Positions 5,466 through 62,589 of a stretch of DNA of 64,000 nt are shown here, one piece after another. Below the pieces are notes generated by a model. It saw only the letters and a list, made by a program, of their open reading frames with translations, was not told the origin of the DNA and did no database searches. The translations under genes were made by a program, and so were the position numbers. Each line of letters begins with the position of its first letter. The first letter of the stretch is position 1. Source of the DNA: Mustelus asterias (lineage: Eukaryota); NCBI RefSeq assembly GCF_964213995.1, contig NC_135807.1, forward strand, positions 90,148,001-90,212,000, given 5' to 3'.

Positions 5466-6008
5466 TGCACTTTCTCAAAAGATTAGGGAAATTTGGCATG
5501 TCAGCTATGACTCTCACCAACTTTTACAGATGTACCAGAGAAAGCATTCTTTCTGGTTGTATCACAGCTTGGTATGTCCCCTGCTCTGCCCAAGACCACA
5601 AGAAACTACAAAGGGTTGTAAATGTAGCCCAATCCATCACGCAAACCAGCCTCCCATCCATTGACTCTATCTACACTTCCCGCTGCCTTGGAAAAGCAGC
5701 CAGCATAATTAAGGATCTCTCGCTTACTCTCTTCCACCTTCTTCCACCAGGAAAAAGATACAAAAGTCTGAAGTCACGTACCAGCCGATTCAAGAACAGC
5801 TTCTTCGCTGCTGCCATCAGATTTTTGAATGGACGTACCTCGCACTAAGTTGACCTTTCTCTACACCCAGCTATGACTGTAACATTACATTCTGCACTCT
5901 CTTGTTTCCTTCTCTATGAACGGTATGCTTTGACTGCATAGCATGCAAGAAACAATACTTTTCACTGTATACTCATACATGTGACAACAAAAATCAAATC
6001 AAATCAAA
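5466..6008 (+). mobile_element. Rex1/Babar-like LINE 3' fragment
   Basis: ORF HFLKRLGKFGMSAMTLTNFYRCT..ESILSGCITAWY, typical of the Rex1 ORF C-terminus. (AAATC)n tail. Confidence 0.75.
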
Positions 6009-6764
6009 GAATGAGCATTATGTCTTAGTCACTTACTTCTTCATGATGCTGTCAGTAAAAATATTGCTTCAATTAAGATTAGGCAGTTGAGTTCTGTTTG
6101 GAAGGAATGCTGTTCGGAATTAGCATGCAAAAATTGCTAAGGGAAAAAAATAGAGTTTGGATTTGTCTGATTTTTTACTCGGTTCATCAATTTGCATTCT
6201 CGAGATTGATTCTGAAAATAAATACTTGAAAATTATTATTTACTCGGCGTCCCAAGAGCACATTTTAAGTTACCAAGCAGTTTGAAAGAAATATGGGTTA
6301 GAGATTGTATATAATTTTTTTGCACGGGGCATCGGGATCGCAATTCATGACTGGCCTGTACCTGGCCAGATCGACAATAAGTCAATTTGGAGTATCCATC
6401 TAATCTAAATGACTGCAACATTGCCCTGAATGCTTCCCGCTCTGTGCTCATCTCCTAAGCATTGCCTGCAGCCTCTGTGCTCAGCAGGGGATCCAGGCAG
6501 CAATTCGGAAGTTTTGCGGTGCAACCAGCCTTCCCTTCTTCAAACCAAGCAGCTCTTTTAAAGGGAAGCTGCACTGAAGAAAATTGCTGAAAACAAAAGT
6601 ATCGGAAAATTGAACACCCAGGGCAGAGCGAGACTTACAACATATTTGATTCAATGCTGGGAGCACTGATGGTGGAGGTAGGCAGGAGGTAGGGTAATTT
6701 TTGATCATTTCTTTTCCTTTGCAAACCTTCTGGAAGTACAGTGCAGTGTTCCCAGAGATTATAT

Positions 6765-8429: not shown

Positions 8430-10427
8430 TGAGAAGCCAAACGAGCTAAGCAATTGCAGACAAAGGACAGAATGCAAAATACTGCAGAGGACAGCATGCT
8501 TGGGAAAAGAAGGGTTCCCAGCCTCGGGAAAGCAATGTTTTAACTGCAGGAAATGAATCATTTCACCCACAAGTGCTTGACCAGTAAAAAGCAAAACAAG
8601 CTGATACAGGTGGCCACTGGAGGGATTTCAGCAGAAGAGCCTGATGAGGAACTATGCAGGATACAACAGGTTGGTTCAGTCAAGTCTATAGATGGCAAAT
8701 ATTTATGACTGTTACAACGATGACCACAGGGAGAGAGTATCAAACAAACAAGAAGTGTCAGCTAGACACACGTGCCTCATGCAATGACTTTCACAAATCT
8801 GTGTGAAGTGGCTGAACATGGTGATATAAGAATGAAGCCCTCGAAAGTAAGATTGAGGCTAAATGATAGCACGATACTCATAGCAAGAGGACAAATTAGC
8901 CAGATAGTCTAATGCAATGGCAAGAAGGAAAGTCTCAAGTTTCAGATCATATATTGAATACAACTGCCACTCATTTCAGTTGAAGCAAGTCTAAAGCTTG
9001 GACTGGTAACCCTGAATGTGTCAACACAGAAAGGGCAACAAAGGTCCCCAGAAAGAGAGCAGCTAAAGATCCCAGAGAGAGGGAAATAAAAAAAACTCCA
9101 GAACAGAGAGAGACAGAAAACCCCAGAGAGAGGGAAATAATACTCAAGTAAACCACAAGATGGTTGTTGACCACGTCAGTGCAATGAAATGCAGGAACTG
9201 AAGCTAAACTTTGTACAGGAAAATGCTCACACCAAAGCTGAACTGGAAGAGTTAAAGAGCAAGATTCCAGCTGAGTCTATACCTTTGAAAATGCACAATA
9301 AACTGAAGTCTTCAATGAACCAAGCTGTGTGGGATCTGACCAAACAAATTTAAGGGACAACACAAAGGTAGCAGGAGGAAAGAACAGCCCACAATTCCAC
9401 AGTAGGCAGCACAATGTGGGAGTTGAAAACCTGGATATACAGGCACAACTACCAGCAAATATACTCAACTGCTTCACTGCAATCAGCTGCTCAGGGAGAA
9501 ACAATCTCACCAACTGCACTGAGTACACATTACCGGCATGGTGGCACAGTGGTTAGGGGTGGCACGATGATACAGTGATTAGCGCTGCTGCCTCACAGCG
9601 CCAGGGACCCAGATTCGGTTCTGGCCTTGGGTCACTGTCTGTGTGGAGTTTGCATGTTCTTCCCATGCCTGCATGGGTTTCCTTTGGGTGCTCCAGTTTC
9701 CTCCCACAGTCCAAAGATGTGCAGTGGAGGTGGATTGGCCATGCTAAATTGTCCTTTAGTGTCCCAAGATGTTTAGGTTCGAGGGGGGAGTAGAAGGGTA
9801 TATACATGGGGTTACAGGGATAGGGTCTGGGTGGGATGCTCCATCGGAGAGTCGGTGCAGACACGATGGGCCGAATTGCCTGCTTCGGCACCATAAGGAT
9901 TTTATGATCTTATGTTTCTACCATTAATCCCAGAGATCCATGAATCCCAACAACTGCAATGGAACAACAGTCACCAAGGCAACAAGGGCCATGGGAATGA
10001 CATTCTCCAGATAAGGAACATCACTCAGATGTACAGCCAATGCCAATGCACACATGGGCTATTCTGAGATCTGCTTGACTTAAAGACTGAAGCATCTGCA
10101 GTGGTGGACTAGTAGAACAAATAATATTAATGCATGAGAACAGTGGGTGTATAGTAGGATACTTGGGTAAATCGCAATCACACAGGATTGTGCATGCAAA
10201 TGTTTTGTTCATGAGGAAAAGGGGGATCTTTATATCTTTAATTCAAATTTGAAAGGAGGATGTTTGGATTTTAAAACGCTACCAGTCTGATTGACACCTC
10301 AGGGTTTGCAAAGTCATGTGACTATGCCATGAGGCTGTCTCTTAAGCGAAGACATCAAAAAATCATTTCAATAAAGACCTCTCACAGAAACACACTAATG
10401 AAGACTACAGTCTTTATACATGAAACA
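8430..10427 (+). mobile_element. Degenerate, internally deleted gypsy-like LTR element
   Basis: PASGKQCFNCRK*NHF knuckle remnant (~8515-8565), KCQLDT.ASCN protease remnant (~8752-8785), purine tract GAAAGGAGGA followed by a TG...CA segment (10261-10427) containing AATAAA. Confidence 0.55.
9533..9915 (+). mobile_element. HE1-type V-SINE with a duplicated 5' head
   Basis: GGCATGGTGGCACAGTGGTTA precedes a second head. V-domain and tail present. Confidence 0.88.
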
Positions 10428-21623: not shown

Positions 21624-23725
21624 GTGGAGATGCCAGTGTTGGACTGGGGTGGGCACAGTAAGAAGTCTCACAACACCAGGTTAAAGTCCAACAGGTTTAT
21701 TTGGTAACACAAGCTTTCGGAGCGCTGCTCCTTCATCAGGTGAGTGGAGAATCGGGTTCGCTAACAGGGTATATACAGACACAGACTCAATTACAAGATA
21801 ATGGTTAGAATGTGAGTCTTAACAGGTAATCAAGTCTTTACAGGTACAGACAATGTGAGTGGAGAGAGGGTTAAGCACAGGTTAAAGAGGTGTGAATTAT
21901 CTCAAGCCAGGACAGTTAGTAAGATTTTGCAAACCCAGGCAAGTTGTGGGGGTTACAAATAGTGTGACATGAACCCAAGATCCCGGTTGACGATGTCCTC
22001 ATGTGTGCGGAACTTGGCTATCAGTTTCTGCTCAGTGATTCTGCATTGTCGTGTGTCTTCAAGGCCGCCTTGGAGAATGCTTACCCGAAAATCGGAGGCT
22101 GAATGCTCTTGACTGCTGAAGTGTTCCCCAACAGGAAGGGAACACTCCTGCCTGGTGATTGTCAAGTGGTGTCCAATCATCCGTTGCCATCGTGTCTGCA
22201 CAGTCTCCCCAATGTACCATGCCTCAGGACATCCTTTCCTGCAGCGTATCAGGTAAACAACGTTGGCCGAGTCGCATGAGTATGTATCATGTACCTGGTG
22301 ATGCTGTTCTCATGTGAGATGATAGCATCCATGTCGATGAGCCTGCATGCCTTGCAGAGGTTGCTGTGGCAGGGTTGTGTGGTGTCATGGTTGCTGTTCT
22401 CCTGAAGGCTGGGTAGTTTTGTGCGAACAATGGTCTATTTGAGGTTGCATGGTTGTTTGAAGACAAGTAGTGGGGGTGTGGGGATGACCTTGGCGAGATG
22501 TTTGTCTTCATCGATGACATGTTGAAGGCTCCAAAGAAGATGTCATGGCTTATCCGCTCCAGGGAAATACTGGATGATGAAGGGTACGCTGGTGGCCGTG
22601 TCCTGTGTTTGTCTTCTGAGGAGGTCGGTGTGGTTTTTCACTGTGGTGAGTCAGAACTGTCGATCAATGAGCCGAGCGCCATATTCTGTTCTTATGAGGG
22701 CATCTTTCAGCGTCTGGAGGTGTCTGTTGCGATCCTCCTCATCTGAGCGGATCCTGTGTATACGGAGGGCTTGTCCGTAGGAGATTTCTTCTTTAACGTG
22801 TTTAGGGTGGAAGCTGGAGAAGTGGAGCATCGTGAGGTTATCCGTGGGCTTGCGGTATAGTGAAGTGCTGAGGTGACCGTCCTTGATGGAGATGCGTGTG
22901 TCCAAGAATGCAACCGATTCTGAAGAGTAGTCCATGGTGAATCTGATGGTGGGATGGAACTTGTTGATGTCATCATGTAGTTGTTTCCGTGAGTCCAAAA
23001 GAAGAAAATGTCATCGATGTATCTAGTGTATAGCGTCGGTTGAATGTTCTATGCGGTGAATAGCCCTTATTCGAATCTGTGCATGAAGACGTTGGCATAT
23101 TGAGGTGTGAATTTGGTCCCCATGGCAGTCCCATGTGTCTGGATATTGAAGGTGAATACGTTGTAGTCCAGGATGAAGCAGGTGAGTTGTAGAATTGCAT
23201 CTGGAGATTGGCAGTTGTCGGTCTTGAGCATTGAGGCAGTTGCAGCAATGTCGTTGTCGTGGGGGATGCTGGTATAGAGTGCCGAGACATCCATTGTGAT
23301 GAGGAGTATTCCTGGTTTGACTGCTTCATGGGTGCTGGGTTTCTGCAGGAAGTCCATAGTGTTGTGACAGGAGCTAGGTGTTCTTTGTACAATGGGTTTC
23401 AGGATGCCCTCGACATAGCCAGAGACGTTCTCACACAGGGTCCCATTGTCTGATACGATAGGATGGCCGGATGTATCTTCGGGAGGCAGTAGAGATCTCC
23501 AACGTGGGAAGTACGTGGGATGAGAGCATGGAGGGCGCTCTGAAGGTCTGGATCAAAGGTCTTGATCAGTCTGTTGAGTTGGCAGGTGTGTTCTTCATTA
23601 GATCTGCGGGTAACTGTAATGTTCCTGGTTGTTCAGTTGTCGGTAAACTTCTTTGCAGTAATCTGTTCAGTATGACGGTGGCCCTTCCTTTGTCTGCTGG
23701 TTTGATGACAATGTTACGACAACCG
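21624..23725 (-). mobile_element. Penelope-like element (RT + GIY-YIG endonuclease), frameshifted and 5'-truncated, with 3' pLTR
   Basis: MDVSALYTSIPH, GTAMGTKF.PQYANVFM, RYIDDIF, FLDTRISI, LYRKPTD. NVVYLIRC..C..AWYIGET at ~22270-22200. Confidence 0.92.
21708..21742 (-). ncRNA. Minimal type I hammerhead ribozyme motif in the PLE pLTR
   Basis: CAC-CUGAUGA-A-GGAGC AGC GCUCC-GAAA-GCUU-GUG: conserved core, 5-bp stem II, palindromic stem III, CAC/GUG stem I. Confidence 0.75.
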
Positions 23726-33094: not shown

Positions 33095-33240
33095 CCACCC
33101 TCACTTAGAATATAAATCTCATTCTATTTTCTTTGTCTTCAGCTCTGACAAAGGATCATTCAGAATCAAAATGTTAACTCTATTCTATCTCCTCAGATGC
33201 TGTCAGATCGGGTGAGATTCCCAGCCTTTGCTGCTTTTGA
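33095..33240 (+). mobile_element. Degenerate single-arm copy of the second pLTR-like family
   Basis: TATAAAT then CAGCTCTGACAAAGGATCAT...CAGATGCTG, similar to the arms at 36.5 kb and 59.4 kb. Confidence 0.6.
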
Positions 33241-35390: not shown

Positions 35391-36402
35391 TGTAACACGT
35401 CCCATGCCTTCTTAAAAAAAAAGCTGCAGGTCAGACATCTCCCAATCAGTGGGAAGAAGGCCCACCCTCGAGCTGCTGACCAATCTGGCTGGCAGTACCA
35501 GAACTCAGCTGTGGTCACCGTGGTTACTGCTTGAAAATAACATGGTCAGTGGAGAGAGATAACCTGGGGGATTTGGATGGGGAGAGATTGGGAGCCTTGG
35601 GCAAGGAAAGAGGGGGAGATTGGGGAGGTGGGTTTTGGAGGCCGGAGGGGGTGGTGATACATAAAGCGAAAGGTAGCATCATATGGGGGTGTCCCGATGC
35701 GGACACAACATTCCTCGAATGATGGCCCCCATTTTCTTCAAAGCTAATTTTAAAAAGGCCATTTCACTTTTGTCTACCTGCCACTGCATAGCACATTTTG
35801 GCAGGTGGAGGCAGATTGGGAGGCTTAAGTGCCAATAGTTGGCCATTCAAGGCCCTCAATTGGCCTAAAAGGGTGGATGGGCTAGTGGGCACATCACTTA
35901 CCCCCCATTTAATTGAGACTATATCAGGGGTGGACAGGAAGGTAGTAGGCTAGCCACTTGACATATTTTACATGACCAAAAGTGGACCCCGTGGGGGCTG
36001 TTAAATGCAGTCTCTTTTTTCTTTTTTTAAAAAAAAACTTCATTGTGACATCTTTATTACGTTTTTATCCATGGCAATGCAAGGTTAAGTACGACCGTTG
36101 GCAACCGTGTTTGATAACTTAAAATATCAGATGGAAAGCTGTGATTACCAACCACCACAAAGACTTCGATACATGTATTTCTAGTATTTACGTTTCCCAA
36201 TGGTCTTGGTGGATATCCTTAAATTCTTTCTCACATCTTTCTCTGTCCTTTCGGTTTCTGAGTCAATGTTGACATGCTTAATAATGCAAATCGCCACAGT
36301 TTGTAGCCCAACTTGGCAGGAGGGCTGCCCCCTCATTATGATGAGGAGACACATGCAACTTAGAAGGAAAATAATGTCTCAGCACAGCCAGAAAGTTCAA
36401 AT

Positions 36403-36656
36403 AACAGATAAAAGCAAATGACTGTGGATGCTGGAATCTGAAACAAAAAGAAAAAATGCTGGAAAGTCTCAGCAGGTCTGGCAGCATCTGTAAGACGAGA
36501 AAAGAGCTGACGTTTCGAGCCCAGATGACCCTTTGTCAAAACTTGCTTTCAGCTTTGACAAAGGATCATCTGGACTCGAAACATCAGCTCTTTTCTCTCC
36601 TTCCAGATGCTGCCGGACTTGCTGAGATTTTCCATATTTTCTCTTTTTGCTTCAGG
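36403..36656. mobile_element. Palindromic mini-element, family B (hammerhead-like, PLE-type)
   Basis: ~100-bp imperfect inverted arms, ~13-nt spacer, one-sided extension. AAGTTCAAAT duplicated at 36393-36402 and 36657-36666. Confidence 0.8.
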
Positions 36657-39600
36657 AAGTTCAAATTTTGTGTCGTAGCAATTGCCCTGCACATTCAGAC
36701 TTTCTCACTGCACAGGTGTGTTTTCAAACTGTTCAAAAGTTCCAGTGGCCAAAGAATTTGTTAACTGCTTCAGAAATGAGAAGCTGAACATCCCGACAGA
36801 AACATGCTGATTTACCAGTTCTGCCTGGCAAGAATATCAAATTCTCAAATCTGACCTAAATGCATTCCACTTCTCAGAGAGTACGTTAATGAAGTACACA
36901 GACTGTGTAATATAGTTCCTCACCATTTTGTGTAATGATTGATGTGTACATTGAAGAGCAAAAATGTTATCTTGATGACTTTTGTGATTATGACTCTAAT
37001 TTTTGGCAAATTATAATAAATTTCTATTGTATTCAACTCTAATCACCGGAGAAAGGTAAAGAAAGGGATTATGTTGTCACAAAATGGTAATGGCCATTGG
37101 CATACAATCGATGAATGCTTCATGAGCTTTTGTGAAAGCCTTAATCTCACTTTGAAACACAATTTCTCAAACATTCTGCTTGCCAAACTTCACAATTTGC
37201 AACATGCTCAAATCTCAGCTGCTCATAATCTTCTCTACACTATATCTGACGTTACACTATCCTACATCCCTGTTCTTATTGATTGAACTGGCCACCTATC
37301 TTCAATTTAAATGTTTTAGCCTCATCTTCACACCTCTCAAGAACACACAGCTTTGCAACCTGCTTGCTCCTACATTGTGCTCACTATTGCCTTCAATCGT
37401 TCCATTCCGTAGTGCAAGACCCGTCAGCCATACTTGTAGAATACACTTAATCACTTTCCTTCAGTTTCAAAATGCTTCATTAAAAACCTGCCTCATTGAA
37501 CTTTACCTGTTCCCTTGCCCAACTCAACAATCTCACAGGTTGGAGACTGTGTCAAGGTCCCAGGAGCGGACTGTGGATGTTACAAGCAAATGGAAAGGGT
37601 GCTTGATTCCTCCCTACCCTGTGCAGATGAATTCCACCAAGCACATACACAGTTTTTCATACAAAGTGATATTAACTTTAAACAACTTCTCCTGACTCCT
37701 CCTCTGGAACTGGACGTTCATTTCCTTTGCTTATTTGTTTATGCTTCTTAAAATGTCCTGCCATGCTTTAATTACTTCAAAGAGAATCTGAATATTCAGA
37801 ATGCAGACTAGAATGATAACTAAAGGATTGCTTTTTCGCTGAGTTTGCCATGTTGATACCGCTGGAGGTATCTTCAGAATAGCTTAAAGAATTTGTTAAT
37901 GTTTGCGAAGGTATGTTAAAATTGTTTCAACCTTATTTACAGAAAATACATGATAAACACAGCTAGTAAAACATTTTGGGCAACTGCCTTCAATTCCCAC
38001 CTAAATTATAGGCATCTACATCTGACTCCCAGATAGAGCTGGGAGCTGCCAACAAAAACATTCATTTCGATGGACTGTTTAAACACAAAACTGTGTCCGA
38101 ATTGTCCAGTTAAGATCATCTGAAGCGATCCCAACAAATCGGATTCCGTACATCCAGCAGGCTCCATTTCAGGATAGGCTGGAACTTTTGCCTGATCAAG
38201 ACATTTGAGATATTTTGAGAAGATAAACATTAAGACTGCAAATCATTCAGCAAGCAGAAAACCTCCTGATACCAATTTTACTTTCCAGTTGATGTAAATG
38301 TTCTTGAATTAAGAATGTGAATTTCCTTACAAATTTAATTTCATTAACTGTGTATAAATGGTGCAGGAAATAATTTTCAGGTTAAAGAACGCATAGACCT
38401 TTTTACACCCAATTCTCCATTAATGTTTTTTAATTGTTCCATCATCTCATTGAATCCTCACTCAACTTGTTTACTTATTTCAAGTCAGAGATACAGCAGA
38501 TGTGACTTTCTTGGATTTTACATTCCCACAGCTCTTTGGGTAACAGACTAATTTCTGAGACATCCCATTGGTTTGTAAATTGAGTTTAGTTTGGTGTCTT
38601 TTTGTGTGAAAAGCTGCTTTGTGTCTGTTCTTGGTGGAATTCATCTGCATGGGGTGGAGGGGGAGGCATTAAAAACCCTTTTCGCTCACTTGTAACATCT
38701 ACACCCTGCTCCTGGGGCCCTCACACAACCTCTGATTTGTGAGATTGTTGAGTTTGGGCTTTGTGCCAAGGTTCTCTAGGCTTCCCTCATGCACCCATGT
38801 CTCAATAATCATAACTAGGGGAAAATCTGGGGCAGGGGAACAGGAACAGCCTCTCTCTCTCCTCATCACATTTACAACATTGGGCATCTTTTTCAGTTAC
38901 ACAGCACTGTTCTGCTCCGGTCTTAGTCTTTCGATATGTGATTTCATTGGAGGAAGCTGAACTTCACTCTGTATTCCAGTGCGCTAATGTAACAAAATGC
39001 TTTCAAGTTGACTTCCACATGACTAGTTTAAATGGGAAACTGAAAAGCGCAAGTGAGAAAAGAAACTGACCATCCCAAGTGGCTAAGGAAACAGATTGAT
39101 GCTGATATTGGAAACTAAAAATATTGGTTGAAACTATATAAAAGAGACAGAGCCATCAGAGCTTAGTTAATGATGAGTCCAATGGTGCAGTAACCGTTTG
39201 CCAAAGAAGATAGAGGCTAGATCCAGAAGCTGAGAAGCAAAGATATAGTTGCTGCAGCTGTTCCTATTACTTGAAAAAAACACAAGGGGATCTAGACAAT
39301 CCAGACCATCATAAACAGAGTTGAAGAAGTTCTGTAGGTGTGTGCCATTTTTGGTGAAGATTGTGCCCATGGAACTCAGGTTGTTTGTCTGCTGCTGTTG
39401 ACTGGGGCTGAGGTTAAATGATTTGTGAGGAAGACAGAGTTATGAACGGGCTTTGTGATTGAAATTGTTAATCTATATGCTGGATGCACAGCCCAGCCAA
39501 TTCATACTATTGGTCTTAATTATACCTGCCATTCAATGTATAATCTATTGTTTATAACCAAATACAATTTGTCTGTTAATTCATATTTGATTTGTGTCGA

Positions 39601-49563: not shown

Positions 49564-49713
49564 ACTGACTGCAAGAACACTTTTCCCAGACTGCTTCACT
49601 GCATTACTGACTGCAAGGGCACTCTTCCCAGACTGCTTCACTGCATTACTGACTGCAAGGGCACTCTTCCCAGACTGCTTCACTGCATTACTGACTGCAA
49701 GGGCACTCTTCCA
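49564..49713. repeat. 42-bp tandem repeat, ~3.6 copies
   Basis: Unit ACTGACTGCAAGGGCACTCTTCCCAGACTGCTTCACTGCATT. Confidence 0.95.
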
Positions 49714-49989
49714 AGAAAGCTTATTGGGTCTCAATGGTCTCATGGTGAACCAATAACCTGTTTTGCAGACATCTGATTTTAAATTACTTTCAATTGACTT
49801 CAATCTCGTCCTTTTGTCTACTTACCTATTATCTCAACCTATCTTGGCGTTTTAATGGTTTCTAATGCATTGAAATTTCATGATTAAGTTGTACTGCACA
49901 GTAGACATTGAAAAGATATTGTAATGAGAATCAGTAATTGGCAAAGTCTTCAGATTTGCTGATCAAGAAAACACAGATATAATTGACCA

Positions 49990-58185: not shown

Positions 58186-59290
58186 CCCATTCTGCAACAA
58201 ATCAAGTTCAATCAAGTCACTTGTGTGCTCTGGCAAATCTGACATGAAGTTATTCACCATAAGTTTGATGATATGGTTTCATTAGAATGGGAGTTAGAAT
58301 GATGTTCTGCACATTTTCTTGATTGAACCATAGACATGGATTTATGTTTCAAAATCTGTTAACTGTTGATATTTTAAGATCATTAATGAGTTAAGAACCG
58401 AGAGAGGGACATTTGCAGATTGCCAATGGCTTGTAAAATTCCAGTGAGAGTATTATTCAAACATTACTCATCAAATTTAACCGTAATCAGATTCAGCACC
58501 GCCTTTCTTTTTTTATACCTTTAATAATTGTGGGACAAATCTGATGCTTACTAAACACACATAAAACTCTTATTGACTCTCATTTGGCGCTAGGTTGGCA
58601 ATGAGGCTTAATTCCAAAATGCTTGGGTTGGCCTGGAGAAGCTAAAATGTGTTGATATCAGCGAAGCACATGATTGGGCTCTAATGTGGGTTTGGCTGTG
58701 ATATCGCAATGGTCAGATATTTCTTATGATACTTCTTATGCAGACTTATGCATGGTGAGTGGCCACATGAGGGAGATATTGGAGTAGTGCTGGTACTCAA
58801 GTTTCGCAACGTCAGTTGCCAAAAGAATGAATTACAAAAATTAGGAGATTAGTGTTTTTACACAGAAGTTTCACAGAACAAGGGAAGCCCTACCACAGCT
58901 GCAGCAGACATCATAAATACTCTCAGATAAAATATGGCTGCAATGCTACCACCTTGTGAAATATTTTCCACTCCTATCTGAATTTACAGTACAACCAAAT
59001 ATATTTTTTAAACAATAATCTAGCAGAAGTGCACGACAAAGTGATTAAGGTGTGGGAGAAAAATCTTCCGTGCTGACCTCCCATTGTGCTAAATTACTAA
59101 GCAGAGATCAAAAGGAGGGAACAAAAATTGAGGGTTACCCCAAGGTCACATTTTTACTAATGGGTGACTATGGTGTGGGATTAAGTGGGATTTATCTGCA
59201 TATTCAGCCTCTCAGCCAGAGGTAGTGCACAGAGAAGAGGGAGAAATGAAATCTGCTTAAGTAATGCTAGTTGAAGCAGCAAGAAAAGCA

Positions 59291-59524
59291 AAAGAGAAAA
59301 CGCTGGAAAATCTCAGCAGGTCTGGCAACATCTGTAAGGAGAGAAAAGAGCTGACGTTTCGAGTCCAGATGACCCTTTGTCAAAGCTTTGACAAAGGATC
59401 ATCTGGACTCGAAACATCAGCTCTTTTCTCTCCTTACAGATGCTGCCACACTGGCTGAGATTTTCCAGCGTTTTCTCCATTGGTTTCAGATTCCAGCATC
59501 CGCAGTAATTTGCTTTTATTTAGT
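59291..59524. mobile_element. Palindromic mini-element, family B, in a CSMD3 intron
   Basis: ~92-bp arms (59294-59385 / 59386-59477) with no spacer, centred on CAAAGCTTTG, plus a one-sided extension. AAGAAAAGCA duplicated at 59281-59290 and 59525-59534. Confidence 0.85.
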
Positions 59525-59702
59525 AAGAAAAGCAGTTTAATTTCCTTAAAATATATACATGGACATTTGGAAAAAAAACAAATACAGCAATGGCACAAGA
59601 AAGTGGTTTTTGCCATATTTTCTCAATTCCCTGTTCTCAGGCTGTCTGCTTGGGGCAAATGCCTCACAAGAAGCAAAGAAACTCTCCACTGCAGGGGAAC
59701 CT

Positions 59703-59750
59703 GGGGAGAGGGGAGGAGGGGGGGGGGGGGGCGGGGGGGGGGGGGGGGGG

Positions 59751-59782
<32 letters not shown>

Positions 59783-59801
59783 CGGGGGGGGGGGGGGGGG
59801 T
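59703..59801. repeat. Poly-G tract with sparse C/A interruptions
   Basis: ~100 nt, almost entirely G. Confidence 0.9.
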
Positions 59802-62280: not shown

Positions 62281-62349
62281 ATTCAAGGCTGCGGGCCAAG
62301 TGCTGGTAAATGGAATTAGGTAGGTAGGTTAGGTGGTCTCATGTATTGA

Positions 62350-62589
62350 CAGTAAGAAGTTTAACAACACCAGGTTAAAGTCCAACAGGTTTATTTGGTA
62401 GCAAAAGCCACACAAGCTTTCGGAGCTCCAAGCCCCTTCTTCAGGTGAGAATTGCCACTCACCTGAAGAAGGGGCTTGGAGCTCCGAAAGCTTGTGTGGC
62501 TTTTGCTATCAAATAAACCTGTTGGACTTTAACCTGGTGTTGTTAAACTTCTTACTGTATTTACCCCAGTCCAACGCCGGCATCTCCAC
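62350..62589. mobile_element. Palindromic mini-element, family A (inverted PLE pLTR ends, hammerhead motif on each strand), in a CSMD3 intron
   Basis: 101-bp arms (62349-62449 / 62458-62558) with 1 mismatch, an 8-nt spacer and a 31-nt extension matching the PLE terminus at 21624. CTCATGTATTGA duplicated at 62338-62349 and 62590-62601. Confidence 0.9.
62460..62496 (+). ncRNA. Minimal hammerhead ribozyme motif (mirror copy on the minus strand at 62411-62447)
   Basis: CAC-CUGAAGA-A-GGGGCU UGG AGCUCC-GAAA-GCUU-GUG. Confidence 0.75.

Follow-up and report, generated by a model that had tools for sequence, protein, structure and literature searches.

A Penelope-like element family whose predicted minimal hammerhead motif carries a U3-A8 core pair

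The insertion analysed here lies in a stretch of DNA of 64 kb (hereafter the window) and consists of two inverted arms with a hammerhead-like core that reads UUGACAA instead of CUGANGA. This raises the question of whether the deviating core reflects decay of a single copy, belongs to a small element that moves on its own, or characterizes a larger family with a variant ribozyme. The reading that we prefer, with a probability of roughly 80%, is that the feature consists of head-to-head, 5'-truncated pLTRs of a Neptune-type Penelope-like element (PLE), and that its predicted minimal hammerhead motif is U3-A8 throughout the family, a state likely acquired once, in the source element, from a C3-G8 ancestor. 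The coordinates are collected in Table 1.

Table 1. Parts of the insertion and related copies (window positions; for L091, positions within that locus)
Feature	Position	Strand	Remarks
Whole insertion	59281-59534		two pLTR fragments of a PLE, head-to-head, between 10-bp target-site duplications (TSD)
Left TSD, AAGAAAAGCA	59281..59290	none	final bases also belong to the end of the left arm
Right TSD, AAGAAAAGCA	59525..59534	none	
Short pLTR arm, ~100 nt, without tail	59289..59387	minus	begins at the common central AGCT
Minimal type I hammerhead motif, best-kept arm	59349..59387	minus	stem I AGCU/AGCU, 5-bp stem II, GAAA, ACGU
Central self-complementary AGCT, common to both arms	59384..59387		modal 5' end of family copies
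Long pLTR arm, ~135 nt	59384..59520	plus	U3 = 59388, A8 = 59393; stem II and ACGU damaged
Second head-to-head insertion, same family	36393..36666	long arm minus, short arm plus	7 nt between arms; both cores U3-A8
Older relative	33141..33224	plus	69% identity with the arm at 36.5 kb; TATA-like site upstream; C3-A8 core
L091, natural full-length copy	inverted pLTR 5733-5858; 5' pLTR 5863-6072; 3' pLTR 9113-9322		broken ORF from ~6108

The span given for the palindrome in a preliminary description of this DNA extends from one TSD through to the other, and the minus-arm reading proposed there (AGCU, UUGACAA, an extra A, GGGUC-AUCUG-GACUC, GAAA-CG-UC, AGCU) agrees base for base with the motif in Table 1. 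The arms (59285-59385 and 59386-59486) are 91% complementary, and the final ~35 nt of the long plus arm represent the optional PLE tail. In the minus arm U3 is found at 59383, A8 at 59378 and C17 at 59353, an extra A follows A9, and the cut is predicted to fall between 59353 and 59352. The insertion at 36.5 kb is flanked by the 10-bp TSD AAGTTCAAAT (at 36393 and 36657), with arms (36446-36543 and 36551-36648) that are 84% complementary. As had been noticed before, TTTGACAAAGG is common to all four arms of the two insertions: there are exactly four exact matches in the window, one per arm, and allowing one mismatch raises the count to ten, compared with a mean of 2.7 in shuffles.

A strict hammerhead descriptor is passed by just two of these four U3-A8 arms, those on the minus strand; in the plus arms of both insertions stem II is interrupted by an A.C mismatch and the palindromic ACGU is replaced by ACAU. 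The ACGU which had been described as a palindromic stem III is indeed present in the minus arm, but it cannot pair within one molecule and requires a second copy. The plus arms (regions 36564 and 59398) have two changes in common, GGGTC to GGATC and ACGTC to ACATC, which are absent from both minus arms; the former was seen in 3 of 42 family arms compared. A G run of ~100 nt adjoins the insertion (window 59700-59800), and a 42-nt tandem repeat lies at 49564-49722.

No hammerhead family reached the gathering threshold in an Rfam scan of the 64-kb window, which returned 0 matches. As three canonical C3-G8 minimal hammerheads of the window likewise escape the scan, this blank is not due to U3-A8. 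The C3-A8 core of the older relative is read as a CpG-decayed C3-G8. Two further PLE sequences were noted in the window. A palindrome of a distant PLE family at 62334-62573 is arranged head-to-head, its arms are 93% complementary with a canonical C3-G8 minimal hammerhead in each, and its class has 96,570 pattern matches genome-wide. A 5'-truncated PLE occupies 21745-22297 on the minus strand; it comprises a GIY-YIG-like fragment (22019-22297) and, after it, a C3-G8 minimal hammerhead near 21745.

The parent element was found in the genome (3.68 Gb searched), where the family has at least 9,689 arms. Of the 30 loci in the first genome set, six have a common upstream sequence in which a TATA box precedes AGCT by 30 nt; the longer of these include a UTR of ~440 nt and the terminal part of an endonuclease frame, and further upstream lie RT motifs (GVAMGTRMGP, YIDD), a CX4CxxC linker (seen in the translations of L035, L034, L043 and L067) and a GIY-YIG-type domain. 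Pfam matches were obtained for RVT_1 on L070 (E 1.1e-06) and for GIY-YIG on L067 (E 7.7e-04), both slightly under the curated cut-off. The full order is pLTR - ORF (RT, CX4CxxC linker, GIY-YIG) - pLTR. In L091 an ORF with RT and C-terminal GIY-YIG lies between direct pLTRs, the 3' one being 94% identical to the 5' one, and this ORF is broken as in all copies seen, none of which has an intact one (longest open stretch 567 aa). The inverted 5' pLTR, the optional tail of 30-40 bp and the short TSD, as known for EN+ PLEs, are likewise present. Thus L091 and the upstream copies bearing RT and EN confirm that the linked PLE ORF which the preliminary description had called for exists, and that the pLTR of the feature is the end of such an element.

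The linker places the parent among Neptune-type PLEs if CX2-5CxxC, a mark of Neptune/Nematis (PMC8557442), is taken as the criterion, the same linker being common to Nematis as well. The family resembles Neptune-clade EN+ PLEs (PMC8557442) in having RT followed by a C-terminal GIY-YIG, the linker, pLTRs, an inverted 5' copy and a tail of 30-40 bp, and differs from them in that it is assigned by this linker and that the copies seen have no intact ORF.

With the family at hand, it can be asked how UUGACAA arose. It could represent random post-insertion decay of CUGACGA in single copies, by CpG deamination and a C-to-T change, and the C7-G8 CpG has indeed become CA in 22 of the 100 listed copies of a sister subfamily (B, see below). 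However, when copies of the family (A) were counted genome-wide by an exact 30-mer demanding that two other CpGs be intact, 3271 of 3570 (91.6%) were U3-A8; 78 had U3 with another base at 8 (47 G, 19 C, 12 T) and 221 had another base at 3. Among the matches listed (100 of these 221), a hand count gave 48 C-A, 13 C-G, 17 A-A, 18 G-A and 4 other, and two C-G loci that were fetched had sister-type sequence downstream. A sample of 100 arms, chosen solely by the sequence downstream of the cut site and confined to the initial 13 Mb of contig C1, contained 78 scorable arms (71 U-A, 3 C-A, 3 U-U, 1 U-C, 0 C-G). Among the copies selected by EN/RT (L031-L093), U3 and A8 were found in 32/32 of those reaching the tail.

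Distant families served as control, with U3-A8 in 49 of 96,570 matches (0.05%); with these 96,570 matches, C3-G8 families outnumber the U3-A8 family in the genome. In 770 kb of evenly spaced stretches the strict descriptor had 41 matches (36 C-G, 3 U-G, 1 A-G, 1 U-A), and 0 in the reversed control. The family is also present in six (organisms A-F) of 24 public sequencing runs, which consist of contigs throughout; at the 8% level no other letter occurs at 3 or 8 for organisms A-D, nor among the rows listed for the rest. Since the genome-wide, control-family and ORF-linked counts exclude random decay of individual copies, an explanation to which we attach practically no probability, U3-A8 is a change of the source element and, as suggested earlier, a family trait. 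Within the stem II classes covered by the search pattern, a second U3-A8 subfamily was not found, counts being at decay level only.

The palindromes themselves might be taken for an independent non-autonomous element, MITE-like or a tandem retrozyme, that moves as a unit. There are, after all, two similar palindromes in one window, 47 of the 100 sampled arms stand in head-to-head pairs, and one contig contains a head-to-tail joint of 137 nt. Against this, junctions and arm lengths differ from copy to copy, each palindrome has its own junction and TSD, more than half of the arms are solo or ORF-linked, the ends fit the PLE tail pattern and a full PLE has this sequence as its pLTR, which makes an independent element very improbable. 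A non-LTR retrozyme in the strict sense (tandem, with a canonical type I hammerhead) was rejected, as copies are solo, head-to-head or ORF-linked and not head-to-tail.

The ends of the sampled arms are informative as to how the PLE copies insert. Of 100 5' ends, 35 coincide with the A of AGCT and 56 lie no more than 3 nt from it, while 2 arms start at the cut site; the 3' ends form two clusters, at about 64-72 and 98-107 nt beyond that site. TSD-like flank repeats of at least 8 nt were present in 26 of 36 inverted pairs as against 218 of 1260 mismatched flanks. The cut-site AGCT is the start of 9,689 exact genome matches, 41 of which are preceded by three bases other than GTC. Inspection of 30 of these 41 candidates by eye revealed ~18 lopsided palindromes, 11 internal deletions or small indels and one copy (L272) with element-like sequence upstream, and none of the 30 clearly joins plain flank as a genomic footprint of cleaved RNA would. 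In the lopsided palindromes (among L251-L280) a full inverted arm is joined to one arm beginning exactly at the predicted cut-site AGCT; these give cleavage no support, since AGCT microhomology explains them equally well. The scarcity of arms starting at the cut site, together with the nature of the candidates inspected, argues for uncut RNA as the template.

These ends would fit the following course of events. RNA would start with stem I, given the TATA box situated 30 nt ahead of the motif's first base. The endonuclease of the element would nick both strands ~10 bp apart, leaving the TSDs observed, and RT would copy the uncut RNA from two internal starts ~35 nt apart, which would yield arms of the two lengths observed. 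Those cDNAs that reach the 5' end of the RNA would finish in the self-complementary AGCT and may join there to form the palindromes. This two-cDNA junction model is our own; self-priming on an antisense template is favoured in PMC3846280, in which head-to-head pLTRs with TSDs of 8-10 bp and a 31-bp tail are standard. In the anole, the PLE nicks and extends both strands, has two internal RT start sites with a spacing equal to the tail, and inserts uncut RNA, its ribozyme cutting only with protein present (PMC11167929). The present family is like this element (Poseidon PAc of Anolis carolinensis) in the two 3' ends about one tail length apart, insertion on both strands, the uncut RNA template and the position of the hammerhead at the pLTR-ORF boundary. 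In contrast, PAc is C3-G8 with an ORF that starts from stem II, whereas here the first ATG of the long ORF is found ~170 nt after the start of the motif (L091).

Sister subfamily B, with 1231 exact matches, allows the direction of the change to be considered. Among the matches listed (100), a hand count gave 68 C-G, 23 C-A, 4 U-G, 1 U-A and 4 other; in the same 100, positions 7-8 read CA in 22 and TG in 27, the symmetric mark of CpG decay of C7-G8. The majorities of A and B (32 and 14 copies) differ in 14 of 135 columns. Six of these differences lie inside the 39-nt motif, at positions 3 and 8, at two loop-2 bases, at 17 (U to C in A, giving GUC) and at 1.1 (G to A, by which U.G becomes U-A), the columns 17 and 1.1 having also been used for sorting copies into A and B. 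None of the six touches an invariant base or breaks a pair.

C3-G8 is the state in subfamily B, in the older relative as read above and in the distant families, and A is less diverged from its column majority than B (3.6% versus 5.8%, the latter being if anything low because B was chosen by exact match), hence U3-A8 is likely the derived state, with G8A arising by CpG deamination. In this course the source element likely lost G8, which is part of a CpG, by a change to A, and C3 to U would then have restored the 3-8 pair. A U3.G8 intermediate subfamily could not be established: this combination occurs in 4 of the 100 listed B matches, two of which nearly duplicate each other, and in 47 of the 3570 matches of A type. 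A tree of EN proteins, built from 30 of 60 rows with family A reduced to 16 and made noisy by frameshifts, did not separate A and B, and a DNA tree of 124 columns clustered them with no branch at 95. As the trees are poorly resolved, the direction of change rests on outgroup states and divergence. The covariation of positions 3 and 8 that the preliminary description had anticipated is borne out in that both differ together between the sister subfamilies, but this amounts to one evolutionary switch, with no repeats in the families counted.

The motif otherwise follows the hammerhead consensus. The invariant core (U4 G5 A6, A9, G12 A13 A14, A15.1-U16.1, H17) is complete in the minus arm and in the family majorities, positions 3 and 8 are Watson-Crick complementary as U3-A8 in the family and C3-G8 in the sister, and the 4-bp stem I, the 5-bp stem II, the extra base after A9, G10.1-C11.1 and the palindromic 15.1-16.1 (ACGU) are all present. 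In a 41-nt monomer a competing GAC/GUC pairing (-9.9 kcal/mol) is predicted to be more stable than the hammerhead-like form (-8.4 kcal/mol), and a hammerhead dimer (-15.1 kcal/mol) is possible, although the cofold optimum is -23.4 kcal/mol. Folding z-scores are unremarkable (-1.4 to +1.4), and since the C3-G8 sister folds alike the result does not single out U3-A8. If active, the predicted ribozyme would be a weak one that cleaves after GUC in a dimer paired through ACGU, probably assisted by protein, and cleavage would act at a step other than the making of the RT template.

The variant as such has been described before. A U3-A8 minimal hammerhead with about 1,300 matches is known from Cercyon PLEs of Schistosoma (Cervera and De la Pena 2014, PMC4209133), the only paper returned for the term 'U3-A8'. 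Of the novelty claimed in the preliminary description, it holds that a CUGANGA descriptor misses the motif, the core of which reads UUGACAA, and with it the family; indeed, scans for CUGANGA only miss thousands of such motifs in the genome. The variant itself, however, had already been published. The motif of Schistosoma mansoni Cercyon (PMC4209133) is alike in its pLTR location, 4-bp stem I, unpaired base between 9 and 10.1, G10.1-C11.1, palindromic 15.2-16.2 without stem III, opposite-strand pairs and U3-A8 core, whereas its stem II has 7-8 bp compared to 5 bp here. Moreover, the host is of vertebrate type here, with shark-like repeats, and where Schistosoma has about 1,300 heterogeneous matches, the present family is homogeneous, numbers at least 9,689 arms and can be compared with a close C3-G8 sister.

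An identical compensatory core pair had been reported even earlier in natural hammerheads (Perreault et al. 2011, PMC3088659), as several scattered examples which, in the available part of that paper, are not linked to a high-copy retroelement family. A preprint (bioRxiv 10.64898/2026.07.22.740005) covers one cartilaginous fish and does not name the U3-A8 variant in its available part. No vertebrate U3-A8 family was found in the literature covered; as subscription journals and Repbase/Dfam were outside its scope, a cartilaginous-fish example may be in print. U3-A8 was likely fixed once here in a vertebrate lineage, the variant being known previously from blood-fluke elements.

Whether the family-wide pair belongs to a working ribozyme is a separate matter. 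We tentatively suggest, at odds somewhat short of even, that a vertebrate PLE lost G8 by CpG mutation, was rescued by C3U together with a better cut triplet and stem I, and then produced more than ten thousand copies, in which case it would carry a live U3-A8 ribozyme under selection next to a C3-G8 sister that is 90% identical. Alternatively, the element and its family-wide U3-A8 are real while the ribozyme is dead or dispensable, both changes being neutral transitions (one of them a CpG decay) that are complementary by chance. This would agree with the origin of inserted copies from uncut RNA, with the single 3-8 switch seen, which at ~10% divergence of the masters could be chance (about 5% in a rough estimate), and with the loop-2 differences between A and B, which also resemble fixed CpG decay. 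Moreover, hammerhead mutants did not impair insertion of the anole PLE in vitro (PMC11167929), and in a mutational scan of a type III construct double mutants of the U3-A8 type were poorly active, only a G-C swap rescuing the 3-8 pair (PMC9901934). On the other hand, each of the six A/B differences within the 39-nt motif leaves the fit to the hammerhead consensus unchanged or better, and the invariant core, the extra A, G10.1-C11.1 and the TATA spacing persist in distant families with different stems. In addition, U3-A8 arose separately in the Schistosoma PLEs (PMC4209133) and was active in vitro according to a study cited in PMC3088659. We regard a dead or dispensable ribozyme as rather unlikely.

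For the preferred family-wide U3-A8 motif, the replacement of the 3-8 pair as a pair, in a high-copy family beside a close C3-G8 sister, represents comparative evidence for selection on this tertiary pair, and the natural sister pair provides two sequences for a side-by-side assay. The gain is incremental because the variant was already published. PLE hammerheads are poor cutters, cleavage of a standard PLE minimal motif being weak and dimer-dependent (PMC4209133), and they are dispensable for insertion in vitro (PMC11167929). If the U3-A8 ribozyme is live, the purpose of PLE hammerheads would become directly testable with the A/B pair, since the RNA would begin at stem I and yet only uncut RNA is inserted.

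A TATA-like box ~34-35 nt before position 3 was observed in distant PLE families too (L091, L161, L164, L170, L192 and others), which suggests that transcripts may begin at the hammerhead stem I as a general rule in PLEs. The joints listed for the contigs include none that would support splicing of a 5' intron. An intron like that of Drosophila Penelope is possible in L091-type elements, and several sites consisting of a pyrimidine tract plus AG are located in or after the pLTR of L091 (5930-6150), one of them just ahead of the first ATG of the ORF.
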